A stretch of DNA of 64,000 nt from Candidatus Cloacimonadota bacterium (GTDB lineage Bacteria; Cloacimonadota; Cloacimonadia; Cloacimonadales; DAONDQ01), in the NCBI GenBank assembly GCA_035402645.1, contig DAONDQ010000001.1:15680-79679 (forward strand). The letters run 5' to 3'. Under the pieces are notes generated by a model. The model did not search any database and was not told the origin of the DNA. It worked only from the letters and a program-made list of their open reading frames with translations. Positions 17,837 through 59,391 of this stretch are shown one piece after another. The translations under genes were made by a program, and so were the position numbers. Each line of letters begins with the position of its first letter. Within the stretch, counting starts at the first letter, position 1.

Positions 17837-20800
17837 TCACATGTTCATTATCTGATTGATGTATGTTTTTTCATCCATAAACACGACATTATTGGATATA
17901 TATTCCCCTGGTTCATATCCTCGCAATTGAAGTTCCATCTTGCCTGTCCATGATACAATCCAACTATTCAAAACAATGTCTTTATCACCAAGCCTTCTTT
18001 CAATCTCCTTGATCCGCTTATGAAATTGAATCTTCTCTGAATTGACACCTTCGTGCATTAATCCATGTGGTTCTATAAAATGAATGTATTGCTTTGTGCC
18101 ATGTAATATCCAAAGAATGAAATCAGGATGGAAATTCCCTGCTTCGAAGAATCCGACCCCTTTCCCTCGGCTCAGGTTGCGAAGCAAGAAGAGCTCCATG
18201 CTTTGGGTTTGCATTATGCGCTTATTCTCTTCGCACCAGCTTTTCAAATCCAAGACAAACTGGTACTCACTCTGGTTCAACGATACTGGTAAAACGGTAA
18301 TTCTCCCTGAATTTCTTGTATGAAGTAAAGGTTTGAAAAGATGCTTTCCAAAATTGCACACATCAAGTTCGCCGACCCTGATAACATCTTTGTTATCGCT
18401 AATATCATTTTGCAGATTTTTGATTGCTTCAATAACATTCGATGCATCTCCATCTACTATGACCTGGTATTCAGCAACATTCGGCAAATTATCATCTTCC
18501 GATGTCAATTCCCGGATTTCAAGACGAGGTTCAAGAAATTCCCTATTTCTATATTTCTGAAGTTTATCCATATAACGCTTTAATAATTCGGTCGCAACTT
18601 TCTGCAGAGTAAAGATTTCTTCATAGCTCTCGGGATGTAGGATGTAATCAGGGAGATATAATTCGTACCACGAAGCATTATGCAGCAAATCAATCAGACA
18701 CTGACTGGTGATGCTCAGATTATACCATTTCTTTTCACATCTAAATCTTTCCAGATCAAAGTACAAGTCATTATAATTCAACAGGCTCAGTTGTTCATCC
18801 TGCAAAATCACTGCCTGCTTTTGATCTTGTTGGGTACGTTTCTGTGAAGCAATTGTCTGAATGCGTGGAAACCAATTTGATACGATCTTATTCTTTTGGA
18901 GATACTCAGGTACTGAATCCAAGAGAACAGTGGGACCGTCATTCATAAAATCATATTCTTTCCCATTGATCTTCTTGGGACGTATGATCTTCAGCTTCTT
19001 CCCGAAATCATAGGTCACATTAATGGGTATGGGTATGGATTCCATCCTTTCATTACCCGGCAAACCTTCTGATGCCAGGTACTTTCTAAATTTCTCCATG
19101 AAATCTGATTCTATTCCGAATACATTCAAAGTTTCAATTTCTTCTATAAACCGCGGTTTTGTCGTGGCTTTTGTATGACCACTACGTTTCAAGCTCCACT
19201 CGAACCCTTTTAACCGTACCCCGCGTCCAAATAGTTGAATAATTTGTGTCCCTTCCGTTTTCCCCACATGCATCAGACCCATGGTGCTCACTCTCCAACA
19301 ATCCCAACCTTCTATGAATTTTTTCGAACCGATCAGCAAGTTCACTGAGGAACTTGAATCTTTGACGGTAGCGAACATGCTTTCTGTAAAATCACTATCT
19401 TTGATTAAAATTGGCATATTATCGCGTTTGGCGACAAAATCTATATGCTCGCATAGTCCTTTCGAATCACCAACATTGATCAAACCAAAGGAAGAATCTG
19501 AATTCCCCGCATATAATGCAATTTCTCCTGATTCACCTTTGATTCGTGTGAGGGATAAATGACCACCACCGCTGTTGTTGAACAAATGAAGAAGTATATG
19601 TGCATAAATAGCAGCAGGATCCGATTGGGCTATGTAATATATCTTCAAGTATTGAAAGGAACTATGGAAAATATCATTCCCTGAGCCATCCAGTAAGCCG
19701 GTATCCGCCCCTGTACCATTCATCAGCTGGTTGATATATCTCTGAAACACCTGTGGTCTGGAAAGAAAATCGGCTATGAACTTTATGACCTTACCCACAT
19801 CCGTAATCAGGTCTGCAGTGGGTACCAGAATTTGCTGATTGCCCTTTTTTTTGGTTACGGTACTTCCTACAAATACCCATAAGGGCTTTTCCAGATTAAA
19901 TAATTCCAGTTCCTTTCTTTTATCTTTGAACAGTAATAGCTGCTGATAGAACTTCAACAGACAGGCTGTTAAATATATATCCTGAACCTCCTCCAATGAC
20001 CTGGGAAGATTCAGTATCTGATAATCCTTGCCAAAACCGTCTTCATAGAACCACCTATAGGAATAATCAAAAAGAATTGCTTTGGCGTAACTTTCTGCCA
20101 GTACCTGGCTACTGGAAGCTGCCACTGCCTGTTCAAACGTTGCTGAATACTCGAAAGTAAAACCTCTCCCACATAATTGGGCACGTCTGGTAAAAAAAGC
20201 ACCCTCTTCTGTCCCGCTCATTCCCCGGTGTCCTTCGTCCACAAGCAGAAGGTTCTGGTCACCCAAGTCACGGGTGGCTTTTGTATTGGGACCGCTTTTA
20301 TCTCCAAGTTTAGTGATTTCCAGCACGTCAATTTGTTCAAGACTGCCCTCCTGTCCGGATTTCAATCTCTGTGCCAAGCCAAATCCACTTTGATTCAACT
20401 CCTCCAAATGCTGTTCTGTTAATCCCTCATTGGGGGTTATGAGAATCACATGGGAAATATCCCTCCCCAATTTTGTCTTTTTTGCATAGTGCCTGAATTG
20501 CAGCAAGTTCACATGCATGATCAGTGTTTTACCGCTTCCTGTGGCATTCTGCATGCATATCTTGTTGAGATCATCATCCGTATATGGATTTACATTTTCA
20601 TATCCAACCCAATGTTCGTTGAATTGCATAATGAAGGAATTGAGATCATTCAGCAGACCTTCACGATTCGTGAAGTACCTATCCAGGTATATTTCCACAA
20701 AGAGCAACGACAACCATTGAAAATACTTCCAGACTATGGGTCTATTTCGTCGCCTATTGATGAACAATGTATGACGCGCAATGTTCTCTTCATACGAGAG

Positions 20801-21061
20801 CAATTGTTCTCTCGTTAGACTTGAACTGTTATTGTAGAATAATTCACTATTCACCAGTGCATGATAGAATCTATGCAACCCGTCAGTGTCCAGACCTTCC
20901 GGATCAACACTTCGTATCGGTGCGGACAACCGATGAAATGGCAATTCGTTGTGATTTGCTTCCGATAGGGGATTGACTCCAAAAAGGTTGATAAGCCACT
21001 GGTTTAATACCAGTTTTTTACGAAATTCAAGTGGATTGTTCCTATTTCTTCTTGCTAACAT
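17837..21061 (-). CDS. res: Type III restriction enzyme Res subunit (SF2 helicase/nuclease)
   Basis: Helicase motif I QNATGSGKTLIMH and motif II LLLVDEGHRG. The C-terminal HPDFILWI...HFIEPHG resembles a PD-(D/E)xK-type nuclease core. Same operon as a DPPY methyltransferase. Confidence 0.8.
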   Translation of the reverse strand: MLARRNRNNPLEFRKKLVLNQWLINLFGVNPLSEANHNELPFHRLSAPIRSVDPEGLDTDGLHRFYHALVNSELFYNNSSSLTREQLLSYEENIARHTLFINRRRNRPIVWKYFQWLSLLFVEIYLDRYFTNREGLLNDLNSFIMQFNEHWVGYENVNPYTDDDLNKICMQNATGSGKTLIMHVNLLQFRHYAKKTKLGRDISHVILITPNEGLTEQHLEELNQSGFGLAQRLKSGQEGSLEQIDVLEITKLGDKSGPNTKATRDLGDQNLLLVDEGHRGMSGTEEGAFFTRRAQLCGRGFTFEYSATFEQAVAASSSQVLAESYAKAILFDYSYRWFYEDGFGKDYQILNLPRSLEEVQDIYLTACLLKFYQQLLLFKDKRKELELFNLEKPLWVFVGSTVTKKKGNQQILVPTADLITDVGKVIKFIADFLSRPQVFQRYINQLMNGTGADTGLLDGSGNDIFHSSFQYLKIYYIAQSDPAAIYAHILLHLFNNSGGGHLSLTRIKGESGEIALYAGNSDSSFGLINVGDSKGLCEHIDFVAKRDNMPILIKDSDFTESMFATVKDSSSSVNLLIGSKKFIEGWDCWRVSTMGLMHVGKTEGTQIIQLFGRGVRLKGFEWSLKRSGHTKATTKPRFIEEIETLNVFGIESDFMEKFRKYLASEGLPGNERMESIPIPINVTYDFGKKLKIIRPKKINGKEYDFMNDGPTVLLDSVPEYLQKNKIVSNWFPRIQTIASQKRTQQDQKQAVILQDEQLSLLNYNDLYFDLERFRCEKKWYNLSITSQCLIDLLHNASWYELYLPDYILHPESYEEIFTLQKVATELLKRYMDKLQKYRNREFLEPRLEIRELTSEDDNLPNVAEYQVIVDGDASNVIEAIKNLQNDISDNKDVIRVGELDVCNFGKHLFKPLLHTRNSGRITVLPVSLNQSEYQFVLDLKSWCEENKRIMQTQSMELFLLRNLSRGKGVGFFEAGNFHPDFILWILHGTKQYIHFIEPHGLMHEGVNSEKIQFHKRIKEIERRLGDKDIVLNSWIVSWTGKMELQLRGYEPGEYISNNVVFMDEKTYINQIMNM

Positions 21062-22094
21062 GAGGCTTACCGCTTTTCTTCTCGATTTGTTTCACTTCAG
21101 TTATTGCTTCCACAAAATGCTTTTCCGCTATACTGGGTTGCTTTAATTGCTCTGTATGCCACTTTTCATATTCTTTGCGAGCCTTTTCGATTGCCTTATC
21201 GTGGGCAACTTTTCCTGCGTGTGTAAGTATCTCTCTTCCGCTTAGTTTCAGAAATTCATCGAGTTTGGCAATCCAATCCCTCATATACATGGGAGTTCTA
21301 TTCAAAGCCTGTAATTCTGCAAAATCAAGATACATGGTGACTATGCGATTCAGAATATCCAACTCATTTTCATTTAGATAGTTTTTTGCCACAACGGTAT
21401 CTGTTTGTCTTGGTTCGTCTCCGATCCAATTGGTGAGTCCCATATTTAGTTTCCCGGCTTGTGCGCGTTCGTAGATGATTTCTGCAGCCGTATGCCCATG
21501 ACTTGCCCAGTGCATTTTATTCTGGATGACTTTGAAGAAGGCTTGGGAAGATTCTGCTCTCGGATCATAATCGATACTGGTGGCATATATATCCAATACC
21601 TTCCGCCAAAACAGCTTTTCCGAAGAACGGATATCCCGTATCCGCACCAGTAATTCATCGAAATAACTACCGCCTCCGTTTTTCTTCAGCCTCTCATCAT
21701 CCAGCGTAAAACCCTTGATAATATACTCGCGCAATCTCTGCGTAGCCCATTGACGGAAGTGGGTGGCAATGGTGGATTTAATTCTATAGCCAACACTGAT
21801 AATCATATCCAGACTGTAATGTGTGACCTGTCTTTGAACTTCTCTATCACCCTCATTTTGAACTATTAAGAAATCCTTAATAGTTCGATTCGAGTCCAGT
21901 TCACCTTCTGCAAAGATGTTCTTCACATGGATATTGATGTTGGCTACTGTGGTTTGAAATAGCTCTGCCAATTGTTTTTGAGTCAACCATAAGGTTTCAT
22001 TTTCCAACCTTGTTTCCAACCTCAGCTTGCCATCTGTACCGGAATAGAGAAGAATTTCACTCTTTGGAAGTTCTTTTGCTTTTTTGATCATCAT
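21042..22094 (-). CDS. rhuM: RhuM-family protein (copy 1)
   Basis: Motifs SVGYRIKS..ATHFRQWATQRLREYIIKGFTLDDERLK, FDELLVRIRDIRSSEKLFWRKV, LNRIVTMYLDFAE and PMYMRDW. The ATG at 22094 overlaps the mod stop (ATGA). Confidence 0.8.
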   Translation of the reverse strand: MMIKKAKELPKSEILLYSGTDGKLRLETRLENETLWLTQKQLAELFQTTVANINIHVKNIFAEGELDSNRTIKDFLIVQNEGDREVQRQVTHYSLDMIISVGYRIKSTIATHFRQWATQRLREYIIKGFTLDDERLKKNGGGSYFDELLVRIRDIRSSEKLFWRKVLDIYATSIDYDPRAESSQAFFKVIQNKMHWASHGHTAAEIIYERAQAGKLNMGLTNWIGDEPRQTDTVVAKNYLNENELDILNRIVTMYLDFAELQALNRTPMYMRDWIAKLDEFLKLSGREILTHAGKVAHDKAIEKARKEYEKWHTEQLKQPSIAEKHFVEAITEVKQIEKKSGKPHVSKKK

Positions 22095-24394
22095 ACATCC
22101 TCCGTTTCCCACATACTTTGGAAGAATTTTCCCTCGATGTCATATACTTCCCAATGATCTTCCTTCCTTTTCATAAGCTGCAGATTACTGCTGCCATTCA
22201 CATAAATAATGTTGTACTCTTTTCCCTTATCCTGCCTACATGTCAGTTCAAACCACGTGTTCAATACAAGGTTATCCTCTTCCAGATTATCTGTACGATT
22301 ACGCCATATCACCAATACCCTATCTTTCAAACCATCATTCGGTGCATACGGATTACGGGGTACCCAACCCTCCACTTTGCGGAACCACCATTTTCCATCC
22401 ATACGTGCTTCCAGACCACTTGCCAAAACCAATTTGGTGTTCCGGTCTCCCGGCAATTCCGGGTCAACCATGCGTGTAAAGGATGCCTGGTATCGTTGCG
22501 TTTGTGCAACATGTTCCACACGCAATCCTATCAGGTAATTGAAGGTTTCAAGCAAATCCACGTTTTTAATGATATACTCGTCACTTCCGGGTTTCTTCAC
22601 CTCGAGCTGATACTTGTCCGGCTCATCAAAAGCATCCACATTCAACAGACTACTGCTTCCCCGGGTTTCCACATCGAGCATGTAATGAAGCATGTGATCC
22701 TCTTTCAATCGGGGATTATTGGATATTGCCTTATCCTGTATGGTATCCTCGGAAAAGACCAGATTATTCAGTGTATCCTCGTAACTCTCCAGTCGCAGAT
22801 ACTTGATACATTGGCTGATGCCCGTATGCCTGTTTACAGGCTTTCCATCCTTCCAATCCCTGCTATAAACCACCTTCTCCATTCTTGGCTTCAAGACCGT
22901 ATCAAAGTAATTACCCATCTCCACTAAAACATACTTCCGGTCTCCACCATCTTCACGATTTAGATTAAGAACTGCATGACCTGTTGTACCGGAACCTGCA
23001 AAATAGTCGACCCAATTCCCAGTTTTTATCCGTACAGAAGCAAATAACTGTAATAATAATTTTGAAGGTTTAGGATAGGATACAGCATACTGTTCTCCTA
23101 ATAATTGATGTAATTCATCATTTGCATCTTCGTTTGTGCCCCATCCGAATTTACCTAGATCATTTACATCATATTGCGAATAGTTTGCTTCTCCTGTATT
23201 CCCTAATCTCAAAAGGGTATCTCTCATCCTTTTTTCACGAGGTTCAGTAACGATTCTCCTTAAATATAAATCCTGAGTAATATATAGAGTTTTATCAGCA
23301 GCATAATTCATCATAGTATCTTGTGAATAACGCCAGTTACCCTCAATAATGAGTTCTTTTGCAAGAACTCCTTTTTCGATTACTAAATCAGATAAAAGTG
23401 TTAAATACATATTTCCTGCACTTATTTTCGAGCCCTCTTTTAAATAGTAATCTTTATCTTTATACTTGCTAACAATACCAGGTGGAATTATTCGTTTATC
23501 CCTCTGATTCGATGGATTTACACACGGGTAAGTCTCTTCTTCTGATGTTATTTCCCCGACTAGTCCACCAAACTTTGTTATGTCTTTTGCAATACATATG
23601 ATATAGTCTTTCATTTTTGCTATGTAACCACTTAGAAAAGTCCCTTTTTTCTTTTTTTCCCAAATCAAAGTTGAAAAAAAAGCAGTTTTCCCATATCTCT
23701 CAGTTATTAATGTAGATAAATGTTCTTGTTCTTCATCTCCAATGCTAATAAAAAAAACACCTTCTGATGATAAGGTCTTTAATCCTAATTCTACACGGTC
23801 ACCAATCATTGTAAGCCATGTTGAGGATGGATATGAATCTTTATATATAAATCCATCATCTCCAGTATTATAAGGAGGATCAATGTATATACACTTCACT
23901 TGCTCTTTATACTTTGCCTGTATAAGGTTCAGCGCTTGATAATTCTCGCTATGGATGAGCAGTCCATCGCAATGTTCGTCAAAATCACGGATGGAATCAA
24001 TCAGTTTGGCTTTAAAGGCATCATCAAAGAACTTCGTATCCAGTACCAGCTTGTCGTTGGCTTTTAGAAAATCCACCGTCAGTGGATTGTTGTAGGAATG
24101 AGTCACAAGGTCTCCCTTGATCTCATCCACGGCAAAGAGTTTTATCCATTCCTCATGCTGTGCATGATTGGCAATTATCTCCGGATATAACTCTTGAGGT
24201 ATCCTGTCCAGTGTGATGCAGTAATTAGTTTCCACCACAAATTTCTTTTTCAGCCACAGCTTCTTCTGGAAGTCTTCCAATTGAGCCAGGAATTCAATGA
24301 GTTTCCCTGCTATCCTGCGTAACACCCTGACCTTATTAAGATAAGTCTCCACAGCCGGGGCTTCGGCATTTTCTAAGTCATCCAGACGCATCAC
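22091..24394 (-). CDS. mod: Type III-like DNA methyltransferase Mod, C-terminal (catalytic) fragment of a frameshifted gene
   Basis: Motif IV IYIDPPYNTG and motif I DYFAGSGTTGHAV (beta-class N6A/N4C MTase). This frame is open upstream to 24427 and reads FYIKNEVMRLDD, continuing the upstream ORF if one T is removed. Confidence 0.8.
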   Translation of the reverse strand: MMRLDDLENAEAPAVETYLNKVRVLRRIAGKLIEFLAQLEDFQKKLWLKKKFVVETNYCITLDRIPQELYPEIIANHAQHEEWIKLFAVDEIKGDLVTHSYNNPLTVDFLKANDKLVLDTKFFDDAFKAKLIDSIRDFDEHCDGLLIHSENYQALNLIQAKYKEQVKCIYIDPPYNTGDDGFIYKDSYPSSTWLTMIGDRVELGLKTLSSEGVFFISIGDEEQEHLSTLITERYGKTAFFSTLIWEKKKKGTFLSGYIAKMKDYIICIAKDITKFGGLVGEITSEEETYPCVNPSNQRDKRIIPPGIVSKYKDKDYYLKEGSKISAGNMYLTLLSDLVIEKGVLAKELIIEGNWRYSQDTMMNYAADKTLYITQDLYLRRIVTEPREKRMRDTLLRLGNTGEANYSQYDVNDLGKFGWGTNEDANDELHQLLGEQYAVSYPKPSKLLLQLFASVRIKTGNWVDYFAGSGTTGHAVLNLNREDGGDRKYVLVEMGNYFDTVLKPRMEKVVYSRDWKDGKPVNRHTGISQCIKYLRLESYEDTLNNLVFSEDTIQDKAISNNPRLKEDHMLHYMLDVETRGSSSLLNVDAFDEPDKYQLEVKKPGSDEYIIKNVDLLETFNYLIGLRVEHVAQTQRYQASFTRMVDPELPGDRNTKLVLASGLEARMDGKWWFRKVEGWVPRNPYAPNDGLKDRVLVIWRNRTDNLEEDNLVLNTWFELTCRQDKGKEYNIIYVNGSSNLQLMKRKEDHWEVYDIEGKFFQSMWETEDV

Positions 24395-25454
24395 TTCGTT
24401 CTTTATGTAAAAAATCCAATTCCCGCTTCAGAAAATTGCCCAAATCCTTGTGTATAAAATAGTCCATCGTATTGCGGGCTGTGTAATGATTCAAATATTT
24501 TGCCAGCAGAATACGATTTTTGTCATTTTCCGTCGGTGTTTTTGCTGTAAGCAATTGTAGATAACCTGAAGTCTGTTCCTCCTTTTTCAAAGCCTGTAGT
24601 ATCACCTGCACAGCTTCCTGGTTCTTCACATCCCGCCAGGAATTTTCCTGTTTGTTTTTTTCTTCATCGGAGCGATACTCGAAATTGATGACCAATTCTC
24701 TCTTGTCATTCCATTCAATAGGCTTCTCCCCGTGAATGATAAAGAAGCGCTTTTTGGCATCGGATTCCTTGATATTGCCATGTTCACCTTCCATGGCATC
24801 GACGATTTTGAAATGAACCATCAATTTTTCAGGTAAGTCTTCTTCCAGGTTAAACTCTTCCTGCCCCATGTCTTTACCCGATTTTTCTATAATCTTTTTA
24901 TTAGCCTGCACAAGGTCAAAACTGAAATTATTAAAGTACTCAGTAGTTTTGATATAATACTGGTCGGCATTCGCCCAATGCAGTTTGATTTCCTCCCCGT
25001 TATACGGTACGGCATAAGAGGCTGCTTTGTCTGCTGTTTCCCTGGTAATATACCTGCGGGATATGAAATCACCATCCTCATAATAGCGTTCAAAGAAACG
25101 ATACAAATGGTCATATATTTCACTCTCCGCAGATGCTGAATTTCCTGCAGCCTCATAGTTGGCTCTTGCTTCCTGTACCTTGGGAGATTTCTCAGGTTCT
25201 TCCACACCATAAGCCCTGGCATTTTCCAATTCCTGGTCAAGAACAGCTTTCAATCGTACTTTACGGTTCTCATCTTCCCTGCCGAATGTTTCCTGTATGA
25301 TCCCGAGTAGGTCATTTTCGATAAAATCACTGACTTGATTCGCTTTGGCATGCATGATACGATAGAATCCAAAATCCAAATCCGGTTGATTCAGTTGGAA
25401 TAGTTCCCTTAATTTGTTAACCAGTTTCATCCTTAATTGTGCATTTGTTGGCAT
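24378..25454 (-). CDS. mod: Mod N-terminal fragment (frameshifted)
   Basis: Start taken at MPTNAQLRMKLVNKLRELFQLNQPDLDFGFYRIM (GGGAG SD upstream of 25454). Terminates 17 nt inside the next ORF. Together the two pieces would give ~1150 aa. Confidence 0.7.
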   Translation of the reverse strand: MPTNAQLRMKLVNKLRELFQLNQPDLDFGFYRIMHAKANQVSDFIENDLLGIIQETFGREDENRKVRLKAVLDQELENARAYGVEEPEKSPKVQEARANYEAAGNSASAESEIYDHLYRFFERYYEDGDFISRRYITRETADKAASYAVPYNGEEIKLHWANADQYYIKTTEYFNNFSFDLVQANKKIIEKSGKDMGQEEFNLEEDLPEKLMVHFKIVDAMEGEHGNIKESDAKKRFFIIHGEKPIEWNDKRELVINFEYRSDEEKNKQENSWRDVKNQEAVQVILQALKKEEQTSGYLQLLTAKTPTENDKNRILLAKYLNHYTARNTMDYFIHKDLGNFLKRELDFLHKERSDASG

Positions 25455-25603
25455 GAATTCTCCCTGTAAATGTTCTAATACCTGTATAAATTGAATATTC
25501 TGGAATGAATTCCCCATGTCAAATAAAAAACAAATTCCTGTCAGCATTCGTTTAACAGGAATTTGAGATATTCTATAGATAATTACCAGTATGCTATTCT
25601 ATA

Positions 25604-49429: not shown

Positions 49430-49445
49430 TCCTACATAAATCATG

Positions 49446-49476
49446 AAAAACCGCATCTCCGGATGCGGTTTTTTAT
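49446..49476 (+). terminator. rho-independent terminator
   Basis: AAAAACCGCATC-TCCG-GATGCGGTTTTTTAT, 17 nt after the stop. Confidence 0.8.
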
Positions 49477-49561: not shown

Positions 49562-50269
49562 TTAAATGACAGAAAATTCAAGCCTGGCTTTTCTCTGCTG
49601 CCAATCGGGCATTACCCTTGATAACTTACGATAAAATCCGGTATTATGCTTCGGGTGGAAGATATGGCATAACTCGTGTACAATGATATAATCGATACAA
49701 ACCATCGGTGTCTTGATCAATTCAGTATTGAATAAAATCCTATTCCCCGTGCAGCTGCCCCATCGCTTTTGCATTTTTCGAAAAGTCAGAACCGGTTCCT
49801 CTTCCAAGGTATTTTCAAACTGCTGATAATACACCCGGAACCTTTCGGAAATTCTTCTGACAGCTTGTTTCCGATACCAGCCGTGCATGAGTTTGCGGAC
49901 CCTTTCCTTATTATTTATATCTGTTAGTTCTACGATAAACCACTTCCCGAGTAATCGAACCCTATTATGGGTGGATTCCACCTTTTTCAATCTATATTGC
50001 CTTCCCAAATAATAGAACGTTTCCCCGCTTTCATACCGGTGTTCAACAGGTAATGGGAAGAACTGCTCGAAGTAATGTCTTTTCTTGCGGATAAGGAGTG
50101 CCTTCTTATCAAGGACACTCGTGATATTTTCCCAGGTAATGGATACATTTCCCCTGAACTCGATTGATAGATCAGGCTTAATGAAGATGCTGCTTGTTTT
50201 CCTTGAACTCAGGACCACATTGATCTCAATCACTTGGTCATCGAGTACCCATTCACGTTTATAATTCAT
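49562..50269 (-). CDS. DUF45/YgjP-like zinc metallopeptidase
   Basis: HELCHIFHPKH (HExxH) near the C-terminus. 4-nt overlap with the hsdR stop. Confidence 0.75.
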   Translation of the reverse strand: MNYKREWVLDDQVIEINVVLSSRKTSSIFIKPDLSIEFRGNVSITWENITSVLDKKALLIRKKRHYFEQFFPLPVEHRYESGETFYYLGRQYRLKKVESTHNRVRLLGKWFIVELTDINNKERVRKLMHGWYRKQAVRRISERFRVYYQQFENTLEEEPVLTFRKMQKRWGSCTGNRILFNTELIKTPMVCIDYIIVHELCHIFHPKHNTGFYRKLSRVMPDWQQRKARLEFSVI

Positions 50270-53200
50270 GGTCTTCTATGCTGCGCTATACTGATGCATT
50301 GATCAAGGATTTCATCGATCTTATCGAAATCAGGTTTCACCTCGTATTCCTGCATCTCCTCATAGATACGGTCTTCCATATCGATCTTCATTTTGTTCTG
50401 AACATCGATATTGTTCGCCCAGTCCACAATTCTATCTTTTTCTATGATCTTATCAATTTCCAAAGCCATCTTTGCCAAGACATCATTCTTATTCGGCAAA
50501 TCTATGGAACTCAAAGATTTATTGATCGCTCCAAAATATGCCTTCGCCACATCATTTTCCGCAAGAACAGAAGGTGTATCATCTCCTGTCCTGCTTATGA
50601 TATTCTTCATGATATCCGATACTTTCTTAAGATAATCGAGAGCATTGATTCGCCCTTCCCTGAAAGCCTTAATCGTATCATCGAGAAGCTCAGAGAACTT
50701 CCTGTAAAAAATCGGATCATTATCCATTCGGGTCTGAATTTCCAACTTTGTCCTATGTGCGATGGTATCAGCCTTTGCAGTATCGGAGTGTAACTGCTCC
50801 ACTTCATCCTTGAAGGCATCGTCGAAGATATTGACCAAATTCGTTATAGGTACGGCAGGATTGGCTTTCACGTATGTATTCAGGAGATCCTGGATTTTCT
50901 TCTCATAATCACTGAACTTGATTTTCTCTGCATATCTCTGTGCTACGGACGATTTCAGTTTCTGGAAAAACTGATTGTCATTCTGGTATTGCATCACCTT
51001 TTGATTGTCCGTTGTCAGGTAGAAATCCTCGCTGGACGTAGCAATCATCAAAGCCCTGCTGTAAGCGGAAAGTCTTTCATAGAATTGCTCCCGAAGTGCC
51101 TTATCACCCAATAGCAGTTCAAATTCCTCTTCATCTGCAGGATTATTTATGGTTTTGAATGTATCCCAGAGAATGGTATGTTTTTCAGGAAGCTTTGCCG
51201 TCTCCACTTTGATATCACTCAATAAGCAGGCAATGTCTGCCTCATCGAATTCCGGTAACTTCGAATATAGGTCAAGAGCGTTATTCAACCCTTCCAGAAT
51301 ACCATAATAGTCTATAATAAAGCCAAAATCCTTTTCATCATACAGACGATTCACACGCGCAATAGCTTGCAGCAAGGTATGATCCTTCAGGTTTCTCGTC
51401 AGGTATAGTACCGTATTCAGTGGCGCATCAAAACCTGTCAGCAGTTTATCCACGACAATGATGATCTCAGGTGTATCGGAATACTTGAAGGCATTGATGA
51501 TTTGTTTGTTATATTGCTTTTCATCTCCAAAGCGCTTCATCATATGTTGCCAGAAGGGAATTATTTCATTTGCATTGGGACTCTCGATATCTGTTTCACC
51601 TTCTCTGTCATCCGGTCCTGATATAAGAACTTCTGTGCTCACTTTACCGAATTCATCCAGAAACTTCTTATACTTGAGTGCAGTTGGTCTATCATTTGCA
51701 ACCAACTGCCCCTTGAAACCGGAGTTCTGAAAATAGGTTGAGTAATGAATCCCAATATCCCATGCAATGGCTTTGACTGTTTCATCGGTTTTCTGGATTT
51801 GATCGGTGGTGGAATACTTCCTTTTCAAATCGGCTTTCTGTTCTTTGGTCAGATTAGCCGTTACTGCTTCAAACCATCTGTCTATGCCTTCCTTTTGAAC
51901 TTCCTGGATAACATGCCTACCCTCATAAAGCAGGGGTACTACCGCTTTGTCTTTCACAGCTTCCTGCATGGTATAGGTATTGATGAGTCCCCCGAATTTC
52001 ATCAGCGTGTTCTTCTCACCCTTCATGATGGGTGTGCCTGTAAAACCTATATAACAGGCATTGGGGAGAACTCTTTTCAGTTTGGCATGCAATCTTCCAA
52101 ATTGGGCACGGTGACTCTCATCCACCAATACAAATATATCAGGCGATGAGTTGATCACATCCTGTGCATTCAGGGCTACATCGAATTTATTGATGATAGC
52201 AGTAATGATGGTTGCCTTGTTCTGCTCGATCAGCCTTGCCAGGTGCGCTCCTGAACGGGCTTGCTCCGGCTCCTTCCCGCAGGCTCTGAAAGTATCATAT
52301 ATCTGGTCATCCAAATCCACTCTATCCGTCACCAGCACGATCCTGTAATTGGGAATATCGGGCGACAGCACCAGGCATTTTGCCAGCATGACCATGGTAA
52401 GTGATTTACCGCTGCCTTGCGTATGCCAGACCACTCCGCCTTTTCTCTTTTTATTGTCACCTGACAGGCGAATACGTTCCAAGATCGTTTGCACACAAAA
52501 ATACTGCTGATACCTGGCGATCTTCTTTTCACCCCCATCATAGAGAATGAACTTGTATGTCAGCTCCAGCAGTCTTTCAGGACGGCACAGGGAATAAAGC
52601 ATCCTGTCCTGTTCCGTAACCAGGTTCTCAGAGCATGACTCGATGACATTCCGGATATGGGCGTCATTGCCATAAGCAGCAATGATCCTGGTGGTTTCAC
52701 TTTCCAGCAGCACTTTTTGTTTGACTGCCTGTGCTTCGGTATCCACTTCCTCACGCCAGATTGCCCAGAACTTCGCTGAAGTTCCACACGTTGCATACAT
52801 CGCTTCATTCTTGGATAGTACCATCAGCATCTGGCTGTAATGAAACAACCTGGGTATCTCATCGTTCTTCTGGTTTCGTATCTGCTGACTTATCGCCTGA
52901 TCCATGGGATCTTTGATGGATGGACTCTTGCATTCTATCACCACCAGGGGGATACCGTTTACAAACAGGACAATATCCGGTCTCCTGGTTTCATAACTAC
53001 CTGTCCTTTCCACGGCAAATTCTTCCGTAACCTGGTAGATATTGTTCTTCGGCTGCTTCCAATCGATGTAATTCATCCAGAAGCTTTTCAGGTCTCCTTC
53101 CACGATCTGGGGCAGGCTTTTCCCAAGTGAAAGCAAATCGAATATCCTCTCGTTCGTTCGAATCAAACCCTCATAGGATATCTCCTTGAGCGTTTCCACT

Positions 53201-53430
53201 GCGGAAATGATATTGCTTTCTGAAAAAGGCTGTTCCTTTCCCCTGTATTCAATCCTGTTATGCTCCCGCAACCACGGAATCAACACATCTTCCAGTAATA
53301 CGGCTGACTGCTTGCTCCCCCTCAATTTGTTGACTTCCACCGGACTGAGATATTCCCAACCCAATTTCTGCAAATACAACAATGCCGGAATCTTCGACAA
53401 ACAGTCTTCATCAAACCTTAGATACGCCAT
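50266..53430 (-). CDS. hsdR: Type I restriction endonuclease subunit R
   Basis: HTQGSGKSLTMV (motif I) and FVLVDESHRAQ (DEAH-type motif II). N-terminal nuclease region and ~1050 aa. Confidence 0.9.
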   Translation of the reverse strand: MAYLRFDEDCLSKIPALLYLQKLGWEYLSPVEVNKLRGSKQSAVLLEDVLIPWLREHNRIEYRGKEQPFSESNIISAVETLKEISYEGLIRTNERIFDLLSLGKSLPQIVEGDLKSFWMNYIDWKQPKNNIYQVTEEFAVERTGSYETRRPDIVLFVNGIPLVVIECKSPSIKDPMDQAISQQIRNQKNDEIPRLFHYSQMLMVLSKNEAMYATCGTSAKFWAIWREEVDTEAQAVKQKVLLESETTRIIAAYGNDAHIRNVIESCSENLVTEQDRMLYSLCRPERLLELTYKFILYDGGEKKIARYQQYFCVQTILERIRLSGDNKKRKGGVVWHTQGSGKSLTMVMLAKCLVLSPDIPNYRIVLVTDRVDLDDQIYDTFRACGKEPEQARSGAHLARLIEQNKATIITAIINKFDVALNAQDVINSSPDIFVLVDESHRAQFGRLHAKLKRVLPNACYIGFTGTPIMKGEKNTLMKFGGLINTYTMQEAVKDKAVVPLLYEGRHVIQEVQKEGIDRWFEAVTANLTKEQKADLKRKYSTTDQIQKTDETVKAIAWDIGIHYSTYFQNSGFKGQLVANDRPTALKYKKFLDEFGKVSTEVLISGPDDREGETDIESPNANEIIPFWQHMMKRFGDEKQYNKQIINAFKYSDTPEIIIVVDKLLTGFDAPLNTVLYLTRNLKDHTLLQAIARVNRLYDEKDFGFIIDYYGILEGLNNALDLYSKLPEFDEADIACLLSDIKVETAKLPEKHTILWDTFKTINNPADEEEFELLLGDKALREQFYERLSAYSRALMIATSSEDFYLTTDNQKVMQYQNDNQFFQKLKSSVAQRYAEKIKFSDYEKKIQDLLNTYVKANPAVPITNLVNIFDDAFKDEVEQLHSDTAKADTIAHRTKLEIQTRMDNDPIFYRKFSELLDDTIKAFREGRINALDYLKKVSDIMKNIISRTGDDTPSVLAENDVAKAYFGAINKSLSSIDLPNKNDVLAKMALEIDKIIEKDRIVDWANNIDVQNKMKIDMEDRIYEEMQEYEVKPDFDKIDEILDQCISIAQHRRP

Positions 53431-53716: not shown

Positions 53717-54208
53717 CTATTTGATTTTAACAATAACAGCTATAACGATTATGAGAACAAAGACTGCCATAAAAACAAATGGAATTATTTGCTCCAATTT
53801 CGTTACAGGTATATAAGTTCTATTATTTTCTCCTGCATCCAAAGCTTCCCATTCTGCCGTAAACAACTTAAGAGGTAAATAGTGTTCAATTTCATGAATC
53901 ACTTTGAAATGACCCGATGATATTTGCTTATAGGAGTTCAATATGGCTTTCCACAGAAAGCAGTTTACAATCCCTACAAGAGAAAGCCCTGCAATTATCC
54001 AGGAAGAGATGCACTTTTCAATCATGATCCCAATCAGTGCAATAAAGCCTGTGTTCAAAGTAATGAACCAATTAACTAATTGTTGTCTTCTCTGGTGCAT
54101 CCTATCTGTCATTTCAACAAACAACTTATACTGATCATAAAGATCTTTATGATAAAGTTCTTTATCATAATAATCTTTTTCAGCTTTACCCATTAGTTTC
54201 TTTAACAT
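53717..54208 (-). CDS. small 3-TM membrane protein (SLATT-like candidate effector)
   Basis: ~40-aa charged N-terminal helix (YDQYKLFVEMTDRMHQRRQQ). TM hairpin WFITLNTGFIALIGIMI / WIIAGLSLVGIVNCFLW. C-terminal TM segment IIPFVFMAVFVLIIVIAVIV. 10-nt gap after the TIR-like gene. Confidence 0.6.
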   Translation of the reverse strand: MLKKLMGKAEKDYYDKELYHKDLYDQYKLFVEMTDRMHQRRQQLVNWFITLNTGFIALIGIMIEKCISSWIIAGLSLVGIVNCFLWKAILNSYKQISSGHFKVIHEIEHYLPLKLFTAEWEALDAGENNRTYIPVTKLEQIIPFVFMAVFVLIIVIAVIVKIK

Positions 54209-54218
54209 TGATTTACCC

Positions 54219-54605
54219 TTATGTTAGTTCTCTAATTGCTTGAACAATAGATTCTGTGTTCCAGTTGACTGTTTTATCAGCATATTTCGTTAATGAACTT
54301 GATAATTGATTACCCCATGGTTTAATTGCTAGTATTGGTTTTCCATTCGCTATAGCGATGTTGATTTCTTTTATTATTGAATTACTATAGGATGCATATA
54401 CGCCAGCAATCAGTATCACAATATTAGACCATTTGATACTGTTTTCGATTTCTTCCCATACCTTTTTGTTGTTGCCTGAAACAGGATTATCTTCTGGTAT
54501 AGAATAATTCCTAAAATCAAAGTAATTTCTCTCTTCTAGTAAACCGACAAGATCCTCATAGTGTTTGCTATAGTCCCAACTATGGCTAATAAAGATGTTT
54601 GGCAT
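54219..54605 (-). CDS. TIR-like domain protein (DUF1863 / ThsB-like)
   Basis: IFISHSWDY start, then SNIVILIAGVYASYSNSIIKEINIA and GKPILAIKPW, which is the layout of MTH538-type TIR-like domains. 128 aa. GGAGGAAAA SD. Confidence 0.65.
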   Translation of the reverse strand: MPNIFISHSWDYSKHYEDLVGLLEERNYFDFRNYSIPEDNPVSGNNKKVWEEIENSIKWSNIVILIAGVYASYSNSIIKEINIAIANGKPILAIKPWGNQLSSSLTKYADKTVNWNTESIVQAIRELT

Positions 54606-54615
54606 TTTTCCTCCG

Positions 54616-55905
54616 TTACTTAAAAAACAGAGACATTAGTCCCAGTTTTTGGTTTTGTAATTTGTTTTTTGTCTGAGATAGATTCTCAGTTTCCTTATCG
54701 TAGTAGTATAATATTTGTGCGATTTTCTTTTGTTCTTCAACATGAGGTATTAATAACATTACATTCTCGATATCCCCCTTTGCCAGACCAAATCTGGTTA
54801 CCCCGTTAGCCTTTTTTGAAAAATAGTCTTTTACTGCTTTGCTTTTCAATGCGTTAAAAAGATACAAGGGATAAACATTGTCTGAATTTGATCTTATTAT
54901 TGCTAAATGGTATCCACAAACTAAATTAGATACATCTTTCCCGATATAAGCAGGGATTCCAATATCGTCTGCTGTTTCAGAGTCTTTTGTAATGATGATA
55001 TCTTTTTCATGTATTGAAAACTTCTTGATTTCGTCTTCAGAAGCAGTAGCTGTCATAAATAGTATTTTATCATCAATGTAGTTATTCTGGTACACATCAA
55101 GATAGTTACATAAAAGCACTTTCTTTTGATTAGGATATGTCTTTTTATCTACATTGCTCACAACAATCTGGGAAATATCCTTTAACTGTGTCCTCTCCCA
55201 CCCCTCGGGTAGCTCACCAGCTTGAGAGACAGGCTTTCCGAAGCCCGGGAAACGGATTTGCCCTGTGAGCAATTTCTGCATAAGTGTTTTTTTAAAAGTC
55301 TGCTTTGCTTCGATAAGCTTCTCGAGCTTCTCTATGGCTTGATCCCATGTAAGAAGGATCAACGAAAGTTTTCTCTGATCCTGCACGTTCTTAGGAATAT
55401 TGAGTTCCATATTTCTAATGGAAGGTAGAGTTAATCCAAATCTTGTTGCACCAGTTGCATACTTACGATATCTCTTATGTATGCTCATATTCCATAAATA
55501 ATACATAAGAAATAATGGATCTATAATTTGTTGATTAGGTCTTAATAGAGCTAAATGATAACCACAAATAAGGAAAGGAACTTCTTCGATTATCAGAGAC
55601 GGAACACCAATATCATCTGGTGATTCTGAGTCTTTCGTAATAACTACATCTCCTTGTTTAAGACAGTATTTTGTGATTTCACTTTCTGATGCGGATGATT
55701 GCATGAAATTCAAAGTTCTGTTTATAAAACGATTCCTATACACATCAATATAGTTACATAGTAGTACTATTTTCTGAGCAACATACTCTTTCTTATCTAC
55801 ATTACTTACTTTGATATCTGCTATCTGTGAAAGTTGCTTAGTAATCCTTCCATCAGTATTCATTATGATATCAACTTTATCCAATTGCGTGTTATTTATT
55901 GTCAT
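54616..55905 (-). CDS. hsdS: Type I restriction-modification specificity subunit S (full length, two TRDs)
   Basis: Two variable target-recognition halves, each followed by a conserved helical spacer (IPKNVQDQRKLSLIL...; IPHVEEQKKIAQILYYYD...). Confidence 0.85.
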   Translation of the reverse strand: MTINNTQLDKVDIIMNTDGRITKQLSQIADIKVSNVDKKEYVAQKIVLLCNYIDVYRNRFINRTLNFMQSSASESEITKYCLKQGDVVITKDSESPDDIGVPSLIIEEVPFLICGYHLALLRPNQQIIDPLFLMYYLWNMSIHKRYRKYATGATRFGLTLPSIRNMELNIPKNVQDQRKLSLILLTWDQAIEKLEKLIEAKQTFKKTLMQKLLTGQIRFPGFGKPVSQAGELPEGWERTQLKDISQIVVSNVDKKTYPNQKKVLLCNYLDVYQNNYIDDKILFMTATASEDEIKKFSIHEKDIIITKDSETADDIGIPAYIGKDVSNLVCGYHLAIIRSNSDNVYPLYLFNALKSKAVKDYFSKKANGVTRFGLAKGDIENVMLLIPHVEEQKKIAQILYYYDKETENLSQTKNKLQNQKLGLMSLFFK

Positions 55906-55920: not shown

Positions 55921-56961
55921 CTATTTCCTCTTCAGGCTTCTTTTCAGTTTTGTAGTATGCTGTGTCAGTTCATCGAGTTGTTTCACGTCATCATGGGTCT
56001 TATCTTCCAGTTGGATACGTTTTCCCCTGAATTTTTCATATTCTTTATGCGCCAATGCCTGTGCCACTTCATGTGACACTTTCCCTGAATTCTTCAGAAT
56101 TTCCCTGCCGTTGAATCGCAGGAAGGCATCCAGTTTTTCCTTCCAGTCCCTCATATACATAGGCAATTGTCGTTCTGCCTGGTCTTCCGCATAGTCTAAA
56201 TACATGGTGACGATTCGATTCAGTTCTTTCAATTCCTGTTCGTTCAGGTAATTCTTGGCAACCTCCACATCCGTTTTCCTGACTTTTTTCCCTTTCCATG
56301 ATGTTAAGCCCATATTGGGTTTCTCAGCATTGGCTCTATCTGAAATCAATTCTGCCGCAGTTTTGCCATGCACGGCATAATGAAGCTTGTTCTGAACCGT
56401 GGCATAGAACTCCACCGTGATGGGAGCATTGGGATCATAATCCACAGCAAGGCTGTAAAGTTCTGTAATCTTCCTATAGAACATTTTCTCGGAAGAACGG
56501 ATATCCCGAATACGTTCCAGCAGTTCATCGAAATAGTCCCTTCCGAAGGCTTTTGCTTCCTTGAGCCTGTAATCATCAAGGACAAATCCCTTCTGCAGCA
56601 ACTCTTTCAGCTTTTCGGTAGCCCATCTGCGGAATTGCATACCCCGATGAGATTTTACCCGATAACCTACTGCGAGAATTGCTTCCAGGCTATAATAAGC
56701 TAACGGTCTATTTATCTTACGGTTACCTTCCTGTTGAACTGTCAAGAATTCCTTGACAGTTGCCCCATAATCCAATTCCCCATCGTTATAACTATTTAAT
56801 AAATGGCGACTTACATTCTGTTTCGTTGTTTGATACAATTCAGCAATTGCCAACTGACTCAGCCACACGTTCTCATTTTCGAATTTCACATCGATCCGGG
56901 TTGAACCATCTTCGGTCTGGTAGAGCAGGAAATTGGAGCTTATCAAATCCGTTTTTTTCAT
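55921..56961 (-). CDS. rhuM: RhuM-family protein (copy 2)
   Basis: Same motif set as copy 1 (AVGYRVKSHRGMQFRRWATEKLKELLQKGFVLDDYRLK, IRDIRSSEKMFYRKI, LNRIVTMYLDYAE, PMYMRDW). ATGA overlap with the hsdM stop. Confidence 0.8.
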   Translation of the reverse strand: MKKTDLISSNFLLYQTEDGSTRIDVKFENENVWLSQLAIAELYQTTKQNVSRHLLNSYNDGELDYGATVKEFLTVQQEGNRKINRPLAYYSLEAILAVGYRVKSHRGMQFRRWATEKLKELLQKGFVLDDYRLKEAKAFGRDYFDELLERIRDIRSSEKMFYRKITELYSLAVDYDPNAPITVEFYATVQNKLHYAVHGKTAAELISDRANAEKPNMGLTSWKGKKVRKTDVEVAKNYLNEQELKELNRIVTMYLDYAEDQAERQLPMYMRDWKEKLDAFLRFNGREILKNSGKVSHEVAQALAHKEYEKFRGKRIQLEDKTHDDVKQLDELTQHTTKLKRSLKRK

Positions 56962-59077: not shown

Positions 59078-59391
59078 TTCACCTCTTTCCTGATTCACGA
59101 TGAAATACTTTCACGTAATTGAATCTACATCTAATTTAAAAAGAGGATTGGAATTGTCAAGCATTATTTTACGTGTAGTAGGTCTAATTATGCAGTCTGA
59201 TATATCTGCTTTATGTCCTCAACCTTTCCTTTATTCGTTCATCTTCATAATAAGATTCATTCGCCGAATTTTGTCCACTTATTTCCCTTCGCACTGAGTG
59301 TTTGTCCATCTCTCTATTATCTGTTTGGATTTTAGCACCATAGAGACACCATTTAACAAAGCATAAGCGACAGGTAAAAGACTCTCAACCA

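Follow-up and report, generated by a model that had tools for sequence, protein, structure and literature searches.

RhuM genes are enriched near restriction-modification (R-M) genes, and their embedding in R-M operons was published in 2013, 2023 and 2024. A RhuM-like toxin was predicted in R-M/PrrC neighbourhoods, and a multilevel defence combining R-M with a toxin was proposed (Anantharaman et al., 2013; PMC3710099). RhuM is also PADLOC phage-defence candidate PDC-S05, identified through 'guilt-by-embedding' within Type I R-M, BREX and DISARM systems (Payne et al., 2024; bioRxiv 10.1101/2024.01.29.577857), where it is listed as FAM_00003 in the supplementary table of embedded families. A single PDC-S05 gene, alone in E. 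coli B, reduced the plating of T7 and T5 by ~1000-fold and also protected against T4. The gene tested was a family member other than the two described here, and was over-expressed from pQE82L by IPTG induction, such that non-specific toxicity is a possible cause of the resistance. A sequence-only reading of the DNA described here had stated that RhuM-family genes have no assigned function; with PDC-S05 a defence candidate and one member conferring phage resistance, that statement is partly out of date. Its suggestion of a 'toxin-like back-up' is in line with the toxin prediction in the literature. Our search recovered 30,263 representative RhuM clusters (50% identity) from bacteria and archaea, which makes RhuM one of the biggest defence-associated families that still lack a mechanism, and RhuM biochemistry would therefore matter.

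We analysed a 64,000-nucleotide stretch of a Candidatus Cloacimonadota genome ('the window'; coordinates are counted from its first nucleotide), which contains two rhuM genes. rhuM1 (21042-22094, minus strand) is part of a Type III R-M operon with the gene order ORF389-mod-rhuM1-res, all on the minus strand. The mod gene (22091..24394) encodes the catalytic and C-terminal part of the methyltransferase (PF01555 N6_N4_Mtase, E 6e-24), res (17837..21061) has ResIII/DEAD matches, and ORF389 (24378..25547), for which a Pfam scan gave no match, corresponds to the N-terminal third of Mod by comparison with relatives. Mod is a single ORF in those relatives: ORF389 aligns with residues 13-360 of Mod from locus L024 (1152 aa) at 36% identity (E 9e-63) and is 60% identical to the N-terminal part of Mod from locus L087 (1121 aa), the mod product aligns with residues 366-1147 of the L024 Mod, and the res product is 63% identical to the L087 Res. 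ORF389 overlaps the mod start by 14-17 nt. Inspection of the ORF389/mod junction revealed no repeat tract, and the split is found in independent assemblies with an overlapping ATG, indicating a natural two-ORF arrangement and ruling out a frameshifted or phase-variable mod at this junction. The first rhuM1 ATG (22094-22092) and the mod stop codon TGA (22093-22091) form an ATGA overlap. A second in-frame ATG at 22091, which overlaps the mod stop by one base (TGATG), is the start chosen by public gene calls and gives a product of 349 aa; the sequence GGAGGA lies 4 nt upstream of the first ATG and 7 nt upstream of the second. At its other end, rhuM1 shares its last 20 nt with the start of res (ATG at 21061). 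The GC and GC3 content of rhuM1 agrees with that of mod and res, ruling out a recent insert of foreign composition.

rhuM2 (55921-56961, minus strand) lies in a Type I R-M operon, again entirely on the minus strand, that begins with a half-size HsdS-like ORF (58487..59098; Methylase_S, E 6e-5), followed by hsdM (56958..58490; HsdM_N and N6_Mtase, E 4e-105), rhuM2, hsdS (54616..55905; Methylase_S, E 4e-23), a gene for a ThsB-like TIR protein (54219..54605; PF08937 ThsB_TIR, E 1.5e-15), a gene for an 8xMP membrane protein (53717..54208; PF24838, E 2.4e-38), hsdR (50266..53430; HSDR_N, SWI2_SNF2 and T1RH-like_C) and, as the last gene, ygjP, which encodes a YgjP-like metallopeptidase (49562..50269; PF01863, E 6e-47). 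The paired TIR and 8xMP genes are cargo in the window's own hsdS/hsdR (S/R) slot; a literature search for '8xMP' returned only irrelevant matches. The rhuM2 ATG (56961-56959) and the hsdM stop codon TGA (56960-56958) form an ATGA overlap, GGAG lies 7 nt upstream of the ATG, and the hsdS start is 15 nt downstream of the rhuM2 stop. The half-size HsdS-like ORF, which is kept in eight other loci, overlaps hsdM by 4 nt, and ygjP overlaps the hsdR stop by 4 nt. A terminator-like hairpin (49443-49476) is located 3' of ygjP, and in two other loci (L082 and L093) the gene order is the same as in the window through the ygjP end of the operon. hsdS opens a low-GC block (GC 0.34, versus 0.43-0.47 for hsdM, rhuM2 and hsdR). 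Promoter and terminator scans within both operons gave counts equal to the shuffled expectation, and are therefore uninformative. The positions of rhuM1 and rhuM2, with an ATGA on the stop codon of the preceding methyltransferase gene, are as the sequence-only reading had described them. These overlaps, and the GGAGGA and GGAG sequences inside the upstream genes, are putative features of translational coupling, suggesting that both rhuM genes are coupled to the genes that precede them.

Both proteins are members of the RhuM family. They matched PF13310 (Virulence_RhuM) over profile positions 1-249 of 252, with scores of 374.1 bits for RhuM1 (E 3.7e-112) and 390.6 bits for RhuM2 (E 3.6e-117) relative to a gathering score of 33.7 bits, and matched the PDC-S05 PADLOC models over their full length (residues ~7-340; E 2e-143 and E 5e-143, respectively). 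Both genes are embedded in the sense used for PDC-S05, at mod/res and hsdM/hsdS positions with overlapping or near-abutting codons. The two proteins are co-linear, with IRDIRSSEK, LNRIVTMYLD and PMYMRDW in both, as noted previously, and the alignment proposed in the sequence-only reading gave 54% identity over 316 aa (E 1e-124). A relationship to the E. coli DNA-damage-inducible protein D (DinD) appears in a CDD annotation quoted in PMC9881135. For the window proteins this was ruled out (hhalign probability 0.2%, BLASTP E 0.19); in the PMC9881135 case, the DinD/Bro-N part probably represents an additional domain at the N-terminus, of the kind seen in P0269.

For each copy, more than 100 proteins of other phyla show higher identity (63-81%) than the other window copy does (54%), the best of these being 81% identical to RhuM1 and 76% identical to RhuM2. 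The closest relative of rhuM1 is located in an SNF2-Mod-RhuM-Res cassette, and the relatives of rhuM2 are located in halfS-HsdM-RhuM-HsdS(-HsdR-YgjP) cassettes, where HsdM identity (67-68%) parallels RhuM identity (64-66%). The existence of closer relatives in other phyla, in the same cassettes, indicates that the copies came separately with their own R-M operons. Hence, rhuM1 and rhuM2 are independent acquisitions, each with its R-M cassette. Together with the RhuM tree, these relatives rule out intragenomic duplication, which the sequence-only reading had set against independent acquisition as a question for phylogeny.

Each RhuM protein has an N-terminal module (~residues 11-140) and a C-terminal module (~residues 140-320). 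An AlphaFold2 model of moderate quality (pLDDT 70, pTM 0.46; N-terminal region pLDDT 70-86) predicted a helix-turn-helix and a wing at residues 39-93. Foldseek matched the N-domain to Bro-N, KilA-N, antirepressor and phage 'repressor domain' proteins (E 1e-7 to 1e-3), with Bro-N/KilA-N matches in BFVD having a probability of 1.0 and TM scores of up to 0.64 on short targets. A Pfam Bro-N (PF02498) scan of the window proteins themselves gave no match; the homologous N-domain of locus L086 scored 20.6 bits, under the 25.6-bit cut-off. Using hhalign, we observed that the N-domain is homologous to that of a RhuM-N/Fic fusion located in the S/R slot of a Type I operon, with homology stopping at residue 140. 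Similarly, the PDC-S23 models have in common with the window proteins just the N-terminal 130-170 residues, and an additional Cro/CI HTH or Bro-N domain is present in some RhuM relatives. The C-domain is predicted to be all-helical, and is strongly conserved and rich in invariant polar residues; conserved residues (rhuM1 numbering) include R156, S158, E159, D175, N192, K193, E205, K237 and N238. The sequence-only reading had suggested a winged helix-turn-helix plus a Fic/DOC-like domain; the N-domain is indeed predicted to be winged-helix-like, but a Fic/DOC-like C-domain is ruled out, since the isolated C-domains had no match to the Fic domain (PF02661) even at E up to 10, the HxFx(D/E)GN(G/K)R motif is missing from both sequences, and homology to the fusion does not extend into this domain. 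Sequence and profile searches of the PDB yielded no homologue (the best match was Ntox15 protein 8fzz, E 0.036, in addition to chance matches to ribosomal protein S9), and Foldseek searches of the PDB gave just weak DdrC and generic winged-helix matches (TM < 0.3); we found neither a catalytic motif nor a structural homologue of the C-domain. We conclude that RhuM proteins are modular: a probably Bro-N-like N-domain is followed by a putative effector, and either RhuM-C or Fic can fill this second position. The structural model suggests that the N-domain binds DNA, and the C-domain may be the effector.

An N-domain of this type could also belong to a DNA-binding regulator, controller-like or antirepressor-like, that tunes the R-M operon or mobile-element genes. 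The predicted helix-turn-helix and wing, the Foldseek matches to repressor-domain, antirepressor and Bro-N phage proteins, the additional Cro/CI HTH or Bro-N domains of some relatives, and the label 'putative DNA-binding protein' that RhuM carries in public phage-satellite records are all consistent with such a role. However, R-M controller (C) proteins are ~80-100 aa, have an Xre-type HTH and are encoded upstream of the genes they control, whereas the window RhuM proteins are 350 aa, have no Xre/HTH_3 match and are encoded mid-operon, not upstream of their would-be targets. Moreover, their large C-domain, with its invariant polar residues, is interchangeable with a Fic enzyme domain, and most RhuM loci are without any R-M system. 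We consider a regulatory function highly improbable.

We surveyed the neighbourhoods of RhuM genes at 80 loci from different species, labelling neighbours with iterated local HMMs and Pfam scans in place of single-sequence phmmer, which was too insensitive. An upstream neighbour could be scored for 76 loci, in a dataset with approximate gene calls, approximate local HMMs and many short contigs. DNA methyltransferases were the commonest upstream neighbour (~15/76, ~20%, of species-representative loci), were of four kinds (HsdM, Mod, MmeI-type and Eco57I-type), and usually overlapped RhuM by 4 nt; none was among the 25 commonest downstream families. This methyltransferase excess is real and extends across unrelated classes, such that a functional link between RhuM and methyltransferases is possible, and RhuM is non-randomly associated with R-M operons. 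By contrast, 46 of the 76 RhuM genes (61%) had no tight link to any upstream gene, and other tight partners were nSTAND3, radical SAM, GmrSD, an AEP-TOTE helicase and an AAA_21/DUF4435 protein. RhuM occupied the hsdM/hsdS (M/S) slot in eight Type I loci and the S/R or a later slot in 6-7; across all loci, its positions included the M/S, S/R, post-hsdR and post-res slots and places beside MmeI-type and Eco57I-type enzymes. Roughly half of the R-M-embedded RhuM genes were in slots other than that following the methyltransferase gene (hsdS/hsdR, or after res). In a Type III mod-res operon the sole internal junction is that after mod, which any embedded gene therefore necessarily follows; in res-first Type III-like loci, RhuM comes after the helicase subunit. 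This distribution is about that expected of an internal passenger. The sequence-only reading had proposed a generic partnership with the methyltransferase module, to be abandoned if the methyltransferase-proximal position was no more frequent than expected by chance, which is what these slot counts indicate. The non-random association with R-M operons stands, but a specific partnership with the methyltransferase is unsupported, and the methyltransferase-adjacent position is best read as a consequence of operon cargo slots.

A related possibility is that RhuM is functionally tied to the R-M system, serving as its guard or back-up on the PrrC/EcoprrI model: RhuM would be kept inactive by, or signalled from, the methyltransferase or R-M complex and freed once that complex is disabled by an anti-restriction protein of a phage; alternatively, its target would be the DNA ends that restriction generates. 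The finding that methyltransferases, of four classes, are the commonest upstream neighbour of RhuM, usually with a 4-nt overlap, and the published proposal of multilevel R-M and toxin defence, are consistent with this model. In addition, R-M contexts are scattered over the RhuM tree and persist where the partner HsdM or Mod is only 24-28% identical (RhuM itself remaining 46-60% identical), suggesting repeated origin of the arrangement, and in the halfS-hsdM cassette lineage RhuM is steady in the M/S slot while the S/R cargo varies. On the other hand, that tree contains no clade specific to one R-M type, most family members are away from any R-M gene, and one RhuM protein sufficed alone in E. 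coli B. HsdM (N6_Mtase/HsdM_N) and Mod (N6_N4_Mtase) belong to different Pfam families, making a common interface unlikely. Furthermore, where HsdM is 70-72% identical to the window HsdM, the M/S slot is occupied by Abi_2 and a large ATPase or by a protein other than RhuM; elsewhere in the same HsdM lineage this slot contains IVP, RhuM, Abi_2, MBL and patatin genes. Based on these observations, we regard the guard model as credible but unlikely.

The sequence-only reading had argued against hitch-hiking, but equivalent slots elsewhere contain other cargo, and each copy came with its own cassette. In its extreme form, hitch-hiking would make RhuM a selfish, addiction-type toxin or a neutral passenger spread by mobile cassettes with no defence benefit to the host. 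Carriage of RhuM by phage satellites of Streptococcus, by Wolbachia phage WO and by plasmids, and its occurrence in prophages and transposon-rich regions, are as this would predict; there are also fusions of RhuM-N to Doc/Fic toxins that have no neighbouring antitoxin. We nonetheless consider a purely selfish or neutral role very unlikely, given the very strong conservation of RhuM across bacterial and archaeal phyla, even relative to its R-M partners, its integration through overlapping codons in many independent operons, and the reported phage-resistance phenotype.

We favour the explanation that the RhuM copies are passenger defence genes in R-M cassettes, forming an autonomous second layer against phage and other mobile genetic elements, and consider it probable. 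Autonomy is supported by the 46 of 76 RhuM genes without a tight upstream link, by the carriage of RhuM on phage satellites, phage WO and plasmids, and by the resistance that a lone PDC-S05 gene conferred on E. coli B. Each rhuM gene would have been built as a passenger into a horizontally acquired R-M cassette. The overlapping stop and start codons would place RhuM under operon transcription, with translation probably coupled to the upstream gene, meaning that RhuM would be made whenever the R-M system is made. The predicted Bro-N/KilA-N-like winged helix may recognise nucleic acid or a phage factor, the C-domain may act as an effector, and RhuM would work independently of the methyltransferase, beside DNA cleavage by the R-M enzyme. 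RhuM probably serves in defence in the Cloacimonadota host. A more elaborate scheme, which we judge quite unlikely, is that RhuM is a sensor-effector that reads DNA-modification state; for example, the Bro-N-like domain might bind DNA or an anti-restriction factor when the methyltransferase complex is blocked, unleashing a new helical effector, with placement after the methyltransferase gene selected for stoichiometric co-production.

The embedding of RhuM in R-M operons is a real and already documented arrangement, and its novelty here is low. The Cloacimonadota locus is a clean natural example, with two 54%-identical copies in two R-M types and cassettes kept across phyla, but adds little beyond that; the useful outcomes are negative or clarifying, namely the cargo-slot account, the modular family, and a C-domain without a detectable relative of solved structure in the PDB. 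Like the PDC-S05 genes of Payne et al. (2024), the window copies are R-M-embedded and match the family models over their full length; unlike them, one copy belongs to a Type III operon, which that study's screen did not cover, and two diverged copies occur in one genome, although mechanistically there is nothing new. In the systems of Anantharaman et al. (2013), RhuM is found where R-M operons otherwise have Doc/Fic toxins, to which it is in some cases fused, as the RhuM-N/Fic fusion in a Type I operon confirms, whereas the window operons have no PrrC/HEPN gene and a RhuM C-domain instead of Fic. Phage Bro-N/KilA-N antirepressor-type proteins resemble the RhuM N-domain at the fold level in Foldseek searches, but the window proteins lack a Pfam Bro-N match and their C-domain is RhuM-specific. 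TgvAB, a Type IV system located within the Type I operon of VPI-2 in Vibrio cholerae (PMC11411939), is likewise embedded cargo and a self-sufficient defence that complements R-M, but is a two-gene GmrSD-like nuclease targeting hypermodified DNA, whereas RhuM is a single gene. PrrC in EcoprrI is also a non-R-M gene within a Type I operon, co-expressed and thought to be a second line of defence. However, PrrC is an ABC-ATPase with a HEPN nuclease, is kept silent by the R-M complex and rarely occurs other than embedded, whereas RhuM has no domain in common with it (neither ABC-ATPase nor HEPN domains were detected in the window proteins) and is mostly found outside R-M operons. Between PrrC/RloC-type nucleases and the RhuM proteins of the window, the embedded position alone is analogous.

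The window carries two rhuM genes (RhuM: Pfam PF13310, COG3943, PADLOC PDC-S05), each on the minus strand within a restriction-modification (R-M) operon and each starting in an ATGA overlap on the preceding methyltransferase gene, as the sequence-only reading had described. rhuM1 (21042–22094; protein P0001, unnamed in public records) lies in an operon of four cistrons with an overlap at each junction, following ORF389 (24378–25547) and the Type III mod gene (22091–24394) and preceding res (17837–21061), whose start is overlapped by 20 nt by the 3' end of rhuM1. The ATGA combines the mod stop codon with the rhuM1 ATG at 22094; a second ATG at 22091, giving TGATG and a one-base overlap, is the start used in public gene calls, and both ATGs are preceded by GGAGGA. 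Two overlapping ORFs take the place of a single Type III mod, with ORF389 representing the N-terminal 360 residues of one-ORF Mods (1121–1152 aa; loci L087 and L024 from other genomes). We found no repeat tract at the ORF389/mod junction, the overlap contains a new ATG, and the identical split occurs in independent assemblies, arguing against a frameshift and making it probable that the two-subunit arrangement of ORF389 and mod is natural. We also observed two adjoining minus-strand ORFs of 609 and 608 aa (27454–29283 and 29478–31304), neither with a Pfam match, flanked by the ArsP/Type III region and by housekeeping genes.

rhuM2 (55921–56961; protein P0121, publicly named 'virulence RhuM family protein') lies in a Type I operon carrying additional genes, also on the minus strand. 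A half-size HsdS-like ORF (halfS; 58487–59098) comes first, followed by hsdM (56958–58490), rhuM2, hsdS (54616–55905), a ThsB-like TIR gene (54219–54605), an 8xMP membrane protein gene (PF24838; 53717–54208), hsdR (50266–53430) and a YgjP-like metallopeptidase gene (49562–50269). The ATGA joining the hsdM stop to the rhuM2 start has GGAG 7 nt upstream, and 15 nt separate the rhuM2 stop from the hsdS start. halfS (~190–200 aa) overlaps hsdM by 4 nt, is present besides the full-length downstream hsdS, and is kept before hsdM in this cassette lineage in several phyla (L058, L070, L074, L093, L094, L096, L097, L099). The TIR and 8xMP genes, 10 nt apart between hsdS and hsdR, may be a two-gene defence module that pairs TIR with a membrane effector; a literature search on 8xMP returned no relevant report. 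In cassette relatives, this hsdS|hsdR (S|R) slot is empty in L093, holds HAD and DUF2188 genes in L094, and holds other ORFs in L070 and L074. A 4-nt overlap joins the hsdR stop to the YgjP-like gene, beyond which lies a strong bidirectional hairpin (49443–49476); the hsdR-ygjP pairing recurs in L093 and L082.

Aligned over 316 residues, the RhuM proteins share 54% identity (E 1e-124); both match PF13310 (E <1e-110), and both contain the three motifs that the sequence-only reading had quoted. Each copy has at least 119 relatives listed in other organisms at 63–81% identity, closer than the copies are to one another, and the two fall in different major branches of a neighbour-joining tree built without support values. 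The closest rhuM1 relative among the matches listed (P0002, 81%) lies in the context SNF2-Mod(1121 aa)-RhuM-Res, where RhuM overlaps each neighbour by one base; identity of the Type III cassette to the window is 49–60% for Mod, 63% for Res and 81% for RhuM. Relatives of rhuM2 in Chloroflexota, Bacteroidota and Cloacimonadota lie in halfS-HsdM-RhuM-HsdS cassettes, continuing into HsdR-YgjP where the contig extends, with HsdM identities to the window (67–68%) tracking those of RhuM (64–66%), and the top HsdM relatives (82%, 81% and 77%) appear, from matching lengths of the longest contig, to share contigs with the top RhuM2 relatives. The closer foreign relatives, shared cassettes and tree branches rule out intragenomic duplication, one of the two origins that had been left to be distinguished by identity and phylogeny, and indicate independent acquisition, each copy having entered inside an R-M cassette that was already assembled. 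Separate entry is also consistent with base composition: rhuM1 matches mod and res (GC ~0.40), and rhuM2 groups with hsdM and hsdR (0.43–0.47), apart from a low-GC block (0.33) of hsdS, TIR and 8xMP. Another genome also has two diverged copies (L091 and L093, both on contig ctg45485l of ERZ21878447), one in a halfS-hsdM-rhuM-hsdS-hsdR-ygjP cassette and the other alone in a transposase/integrase-rich region beside an ORF6N gene and a zeta toxin gene.

From the same position in two R-M types, RhuM had been proposed to be a generic partner of the methyltransferase module. We tested whether the position next to METHYLTRANSFERASE is special in 80 loci from different GTDB species of many phyla, calling genes with our own script and labelling neighbours by Pfam and iterated local HMMs. 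Among the 76 loci with a scorable immediate upstream neighbour, a methyltransferase lay directly upstream of RhuM in about 15 (~20%), the families being N6_Mtase (nine, eight with HsdM_N), N6_N4_Mtase (four) and MmeI_Mtase (two), plus one Eco57I-type fusion. A 4-nt overlap was present at 9 of 14 methyltransferase-to-RhuM junctions. These counts and overlaps support a real association of RhuM with R-M operons, as already published. Downstream, Methylase_S (9) and ResIII (7) were commonest, and no methyltransferase family was within the 25 commonest. RhuM lacked a tight link to any upstream gene in 46 of the 76 loci, and an R-M gene lay within 7 kb of it in only ~28 of the 80. In Type I loci, RhuM occupied the hsdM|hsdS (M|S) slot eight times, the S|R or a later slot six to seven times and the position after hsdR once; in Type III-like loci, it followed Mod four times and the helicase subunit in two to three res-first operons. 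We conclude from these counts that RhuM associates with R-M operons without specificity for the methyltransferase. rhuM1 could hardly lie elsewhere, since a mod-res operon has one internal junction. Further tightly linked partners were nSTAND3, a radical SAM protein, GmrSD, an AEP-TOTE helicase and an AAA_21/DUF4435 protein.

The most telling evidence against methyltransferase specificity was the differing cargo, that is, extra genes within the operon, in the M|S slot beside HsdM proteins 70–72% identical to that of the window. This slot holds Abi_2 and a 1543-aa ATPase (AAA_16) without RhuM in Leptospira (L097 7763–13263), a 309-aa protein other than RhuM, with a possibly Fic_N-like N-terminus, in L099 (7573–8499), and five genes in L096 (7537–12353): 23S_rRNA_IVP, RhuM, Abi_2, metallo-beta-lactamase and patatin, this RhuM sharing only 52% identity with each of the window copies. 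In the halfS-hsdM cassette lineage, the M|S junction is therefore a cargo slot, behaving as a defence-cargo hotspot, and RhuM is a frequent yet dispensable occupant. Given the other slots, the unlinked loci and this other cargo, a methyltransferase partnership is not supported, and the methyltransferase-proximal position is about as frequent as an internal passenger gene would make it, an outcome that the sequence-only reading had named as refuting the partnership. RhuM stays 46–58% identical with HsdM partners only 24–28% identical, and R-M contexts are dispersed over the RhuM tree, indicating that the association probably arose many times. Such repetition is the one point left favouring a RhuM-R-M link, and would suit a PrrC-like guard functionally coupled to the R-M complex; weighed with the many unlinked loci, we consider such a guard unlikely.

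An AlphaFold2 model of RhuM (mean pLDDT 70, pTM 0.46; pLDDT 80–90 over residues 170–320) predicts an N-domain with a beta-hairpin, a helix-turn-helix (39–62), a long beta-hairpin wing (72–93) and two more helices, and an all-helical C-domain. The helix-turn-helix and wing agree with the winged-helix part of the fold guessed from sequence; the Fic/DOC part does not hold, as neither window protein has a Fic domain or motif. Foldseek matched viral models of Bro-N, KilA-N, 'repressor domain' and antirepressor proteins (E 1e-7 to 1e-3; TM up to 0.64, on short targets) and gave only weak PDB matches, to DdrC and generic winged-helix proteins; PDB sequence and profile searches gave no significant match. 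Profile positions 265–336 (rhuM1 residues ~250–320) had a below-significance match (E 0.036) to the Ntox15-domain protein 8fzz_A in the PDB, at most a lead to what the C-domain does. A search for homology to DinD found none. A Type I operon on a Methylophaga plasmid has, in its S|R slot, a protein that shares the RhuM N-domain (44% identity over residues 11–140, hhalign probability 99.9%) and then continues into a Fic domain, the homology ending exactly at residue 140. Similarly, PADLOC PDC-S23 models have only the N-terminal part in common with RhuM, and a 2006 report described the RhuM N-terminus fused to Doc. RhuM is thus built of modules: the Bro-N-like N-domain is conserved, and the C-terminal domain can be exchanged. 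In two library proteins (P0257, P0329), RhuM appears joined to the C-terminal half of phosphate acetyltransferase or glycogen phosphorylase; a chimeric gene call, or an insertion into those genes, is more probable here than a true domain fusion.

Polar residues of the C-domain are invariant or nearly so (rhuM1 numbering: R156, S158, E159, D175, Y176, Q191 and N192, with others including K193, E205, R210, K237, N238 and E244), a pattern that would fit an enzyme or precise ligand binder. The N-domain may bind DNA, as a DNA-binding regulator would; set beside the C-domain pattern, this role for RhuM seems very improbable. RhuM is a very large family (30,263 matching proteins at E ≤0.001 in a 50%-identity representative library), and full-length genes also occur on Streptococcus phage satellites, Wolbachia phage WO, a Gordonia phage and plasmids. 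That distribution would suit a selfish toxin or neutral hitch-hiker; with phage resistance reported for one family member, we give this little credence. The best supported of the readings considered, and in our judgement a probable one, makes RhuM an autonomous defence-type effector that R-M operons carry as cargo. Expressed together with the R-M operon, it would act alongside DNA restriction, in parallel, possibly through a C-domain effector. A defence role would follow from published guilt-by-embedding and one experiment with another RhuM member, over-expression of which in E. coli B reduced plating of T7 and T5 ~1000-fold and of T4 ~10-fold.

The C-domain function is no more testable at this locus than at many others, and RhuM embedding in R-M operons is a known phenomenon, of which the window is a tidy example whose sequence was read correctly. 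RhuM (COG3943) was recorded beside a Mod gene in 2005; in 2013 it was put forward as a toxin of R-M neighbourhoods (PMC3710099), and in 2023 its enrichment close to inverting hsdS genes was reported. It is a defence candidate, FAM_00003, in a supplementary table of embedded families from 2024 (bioRxiv 10.1101/2024.01.29.577857), PADLOC lists it as PDC-S05, and a 2024–25 preprint described a phage-resistance phenotype for one member.
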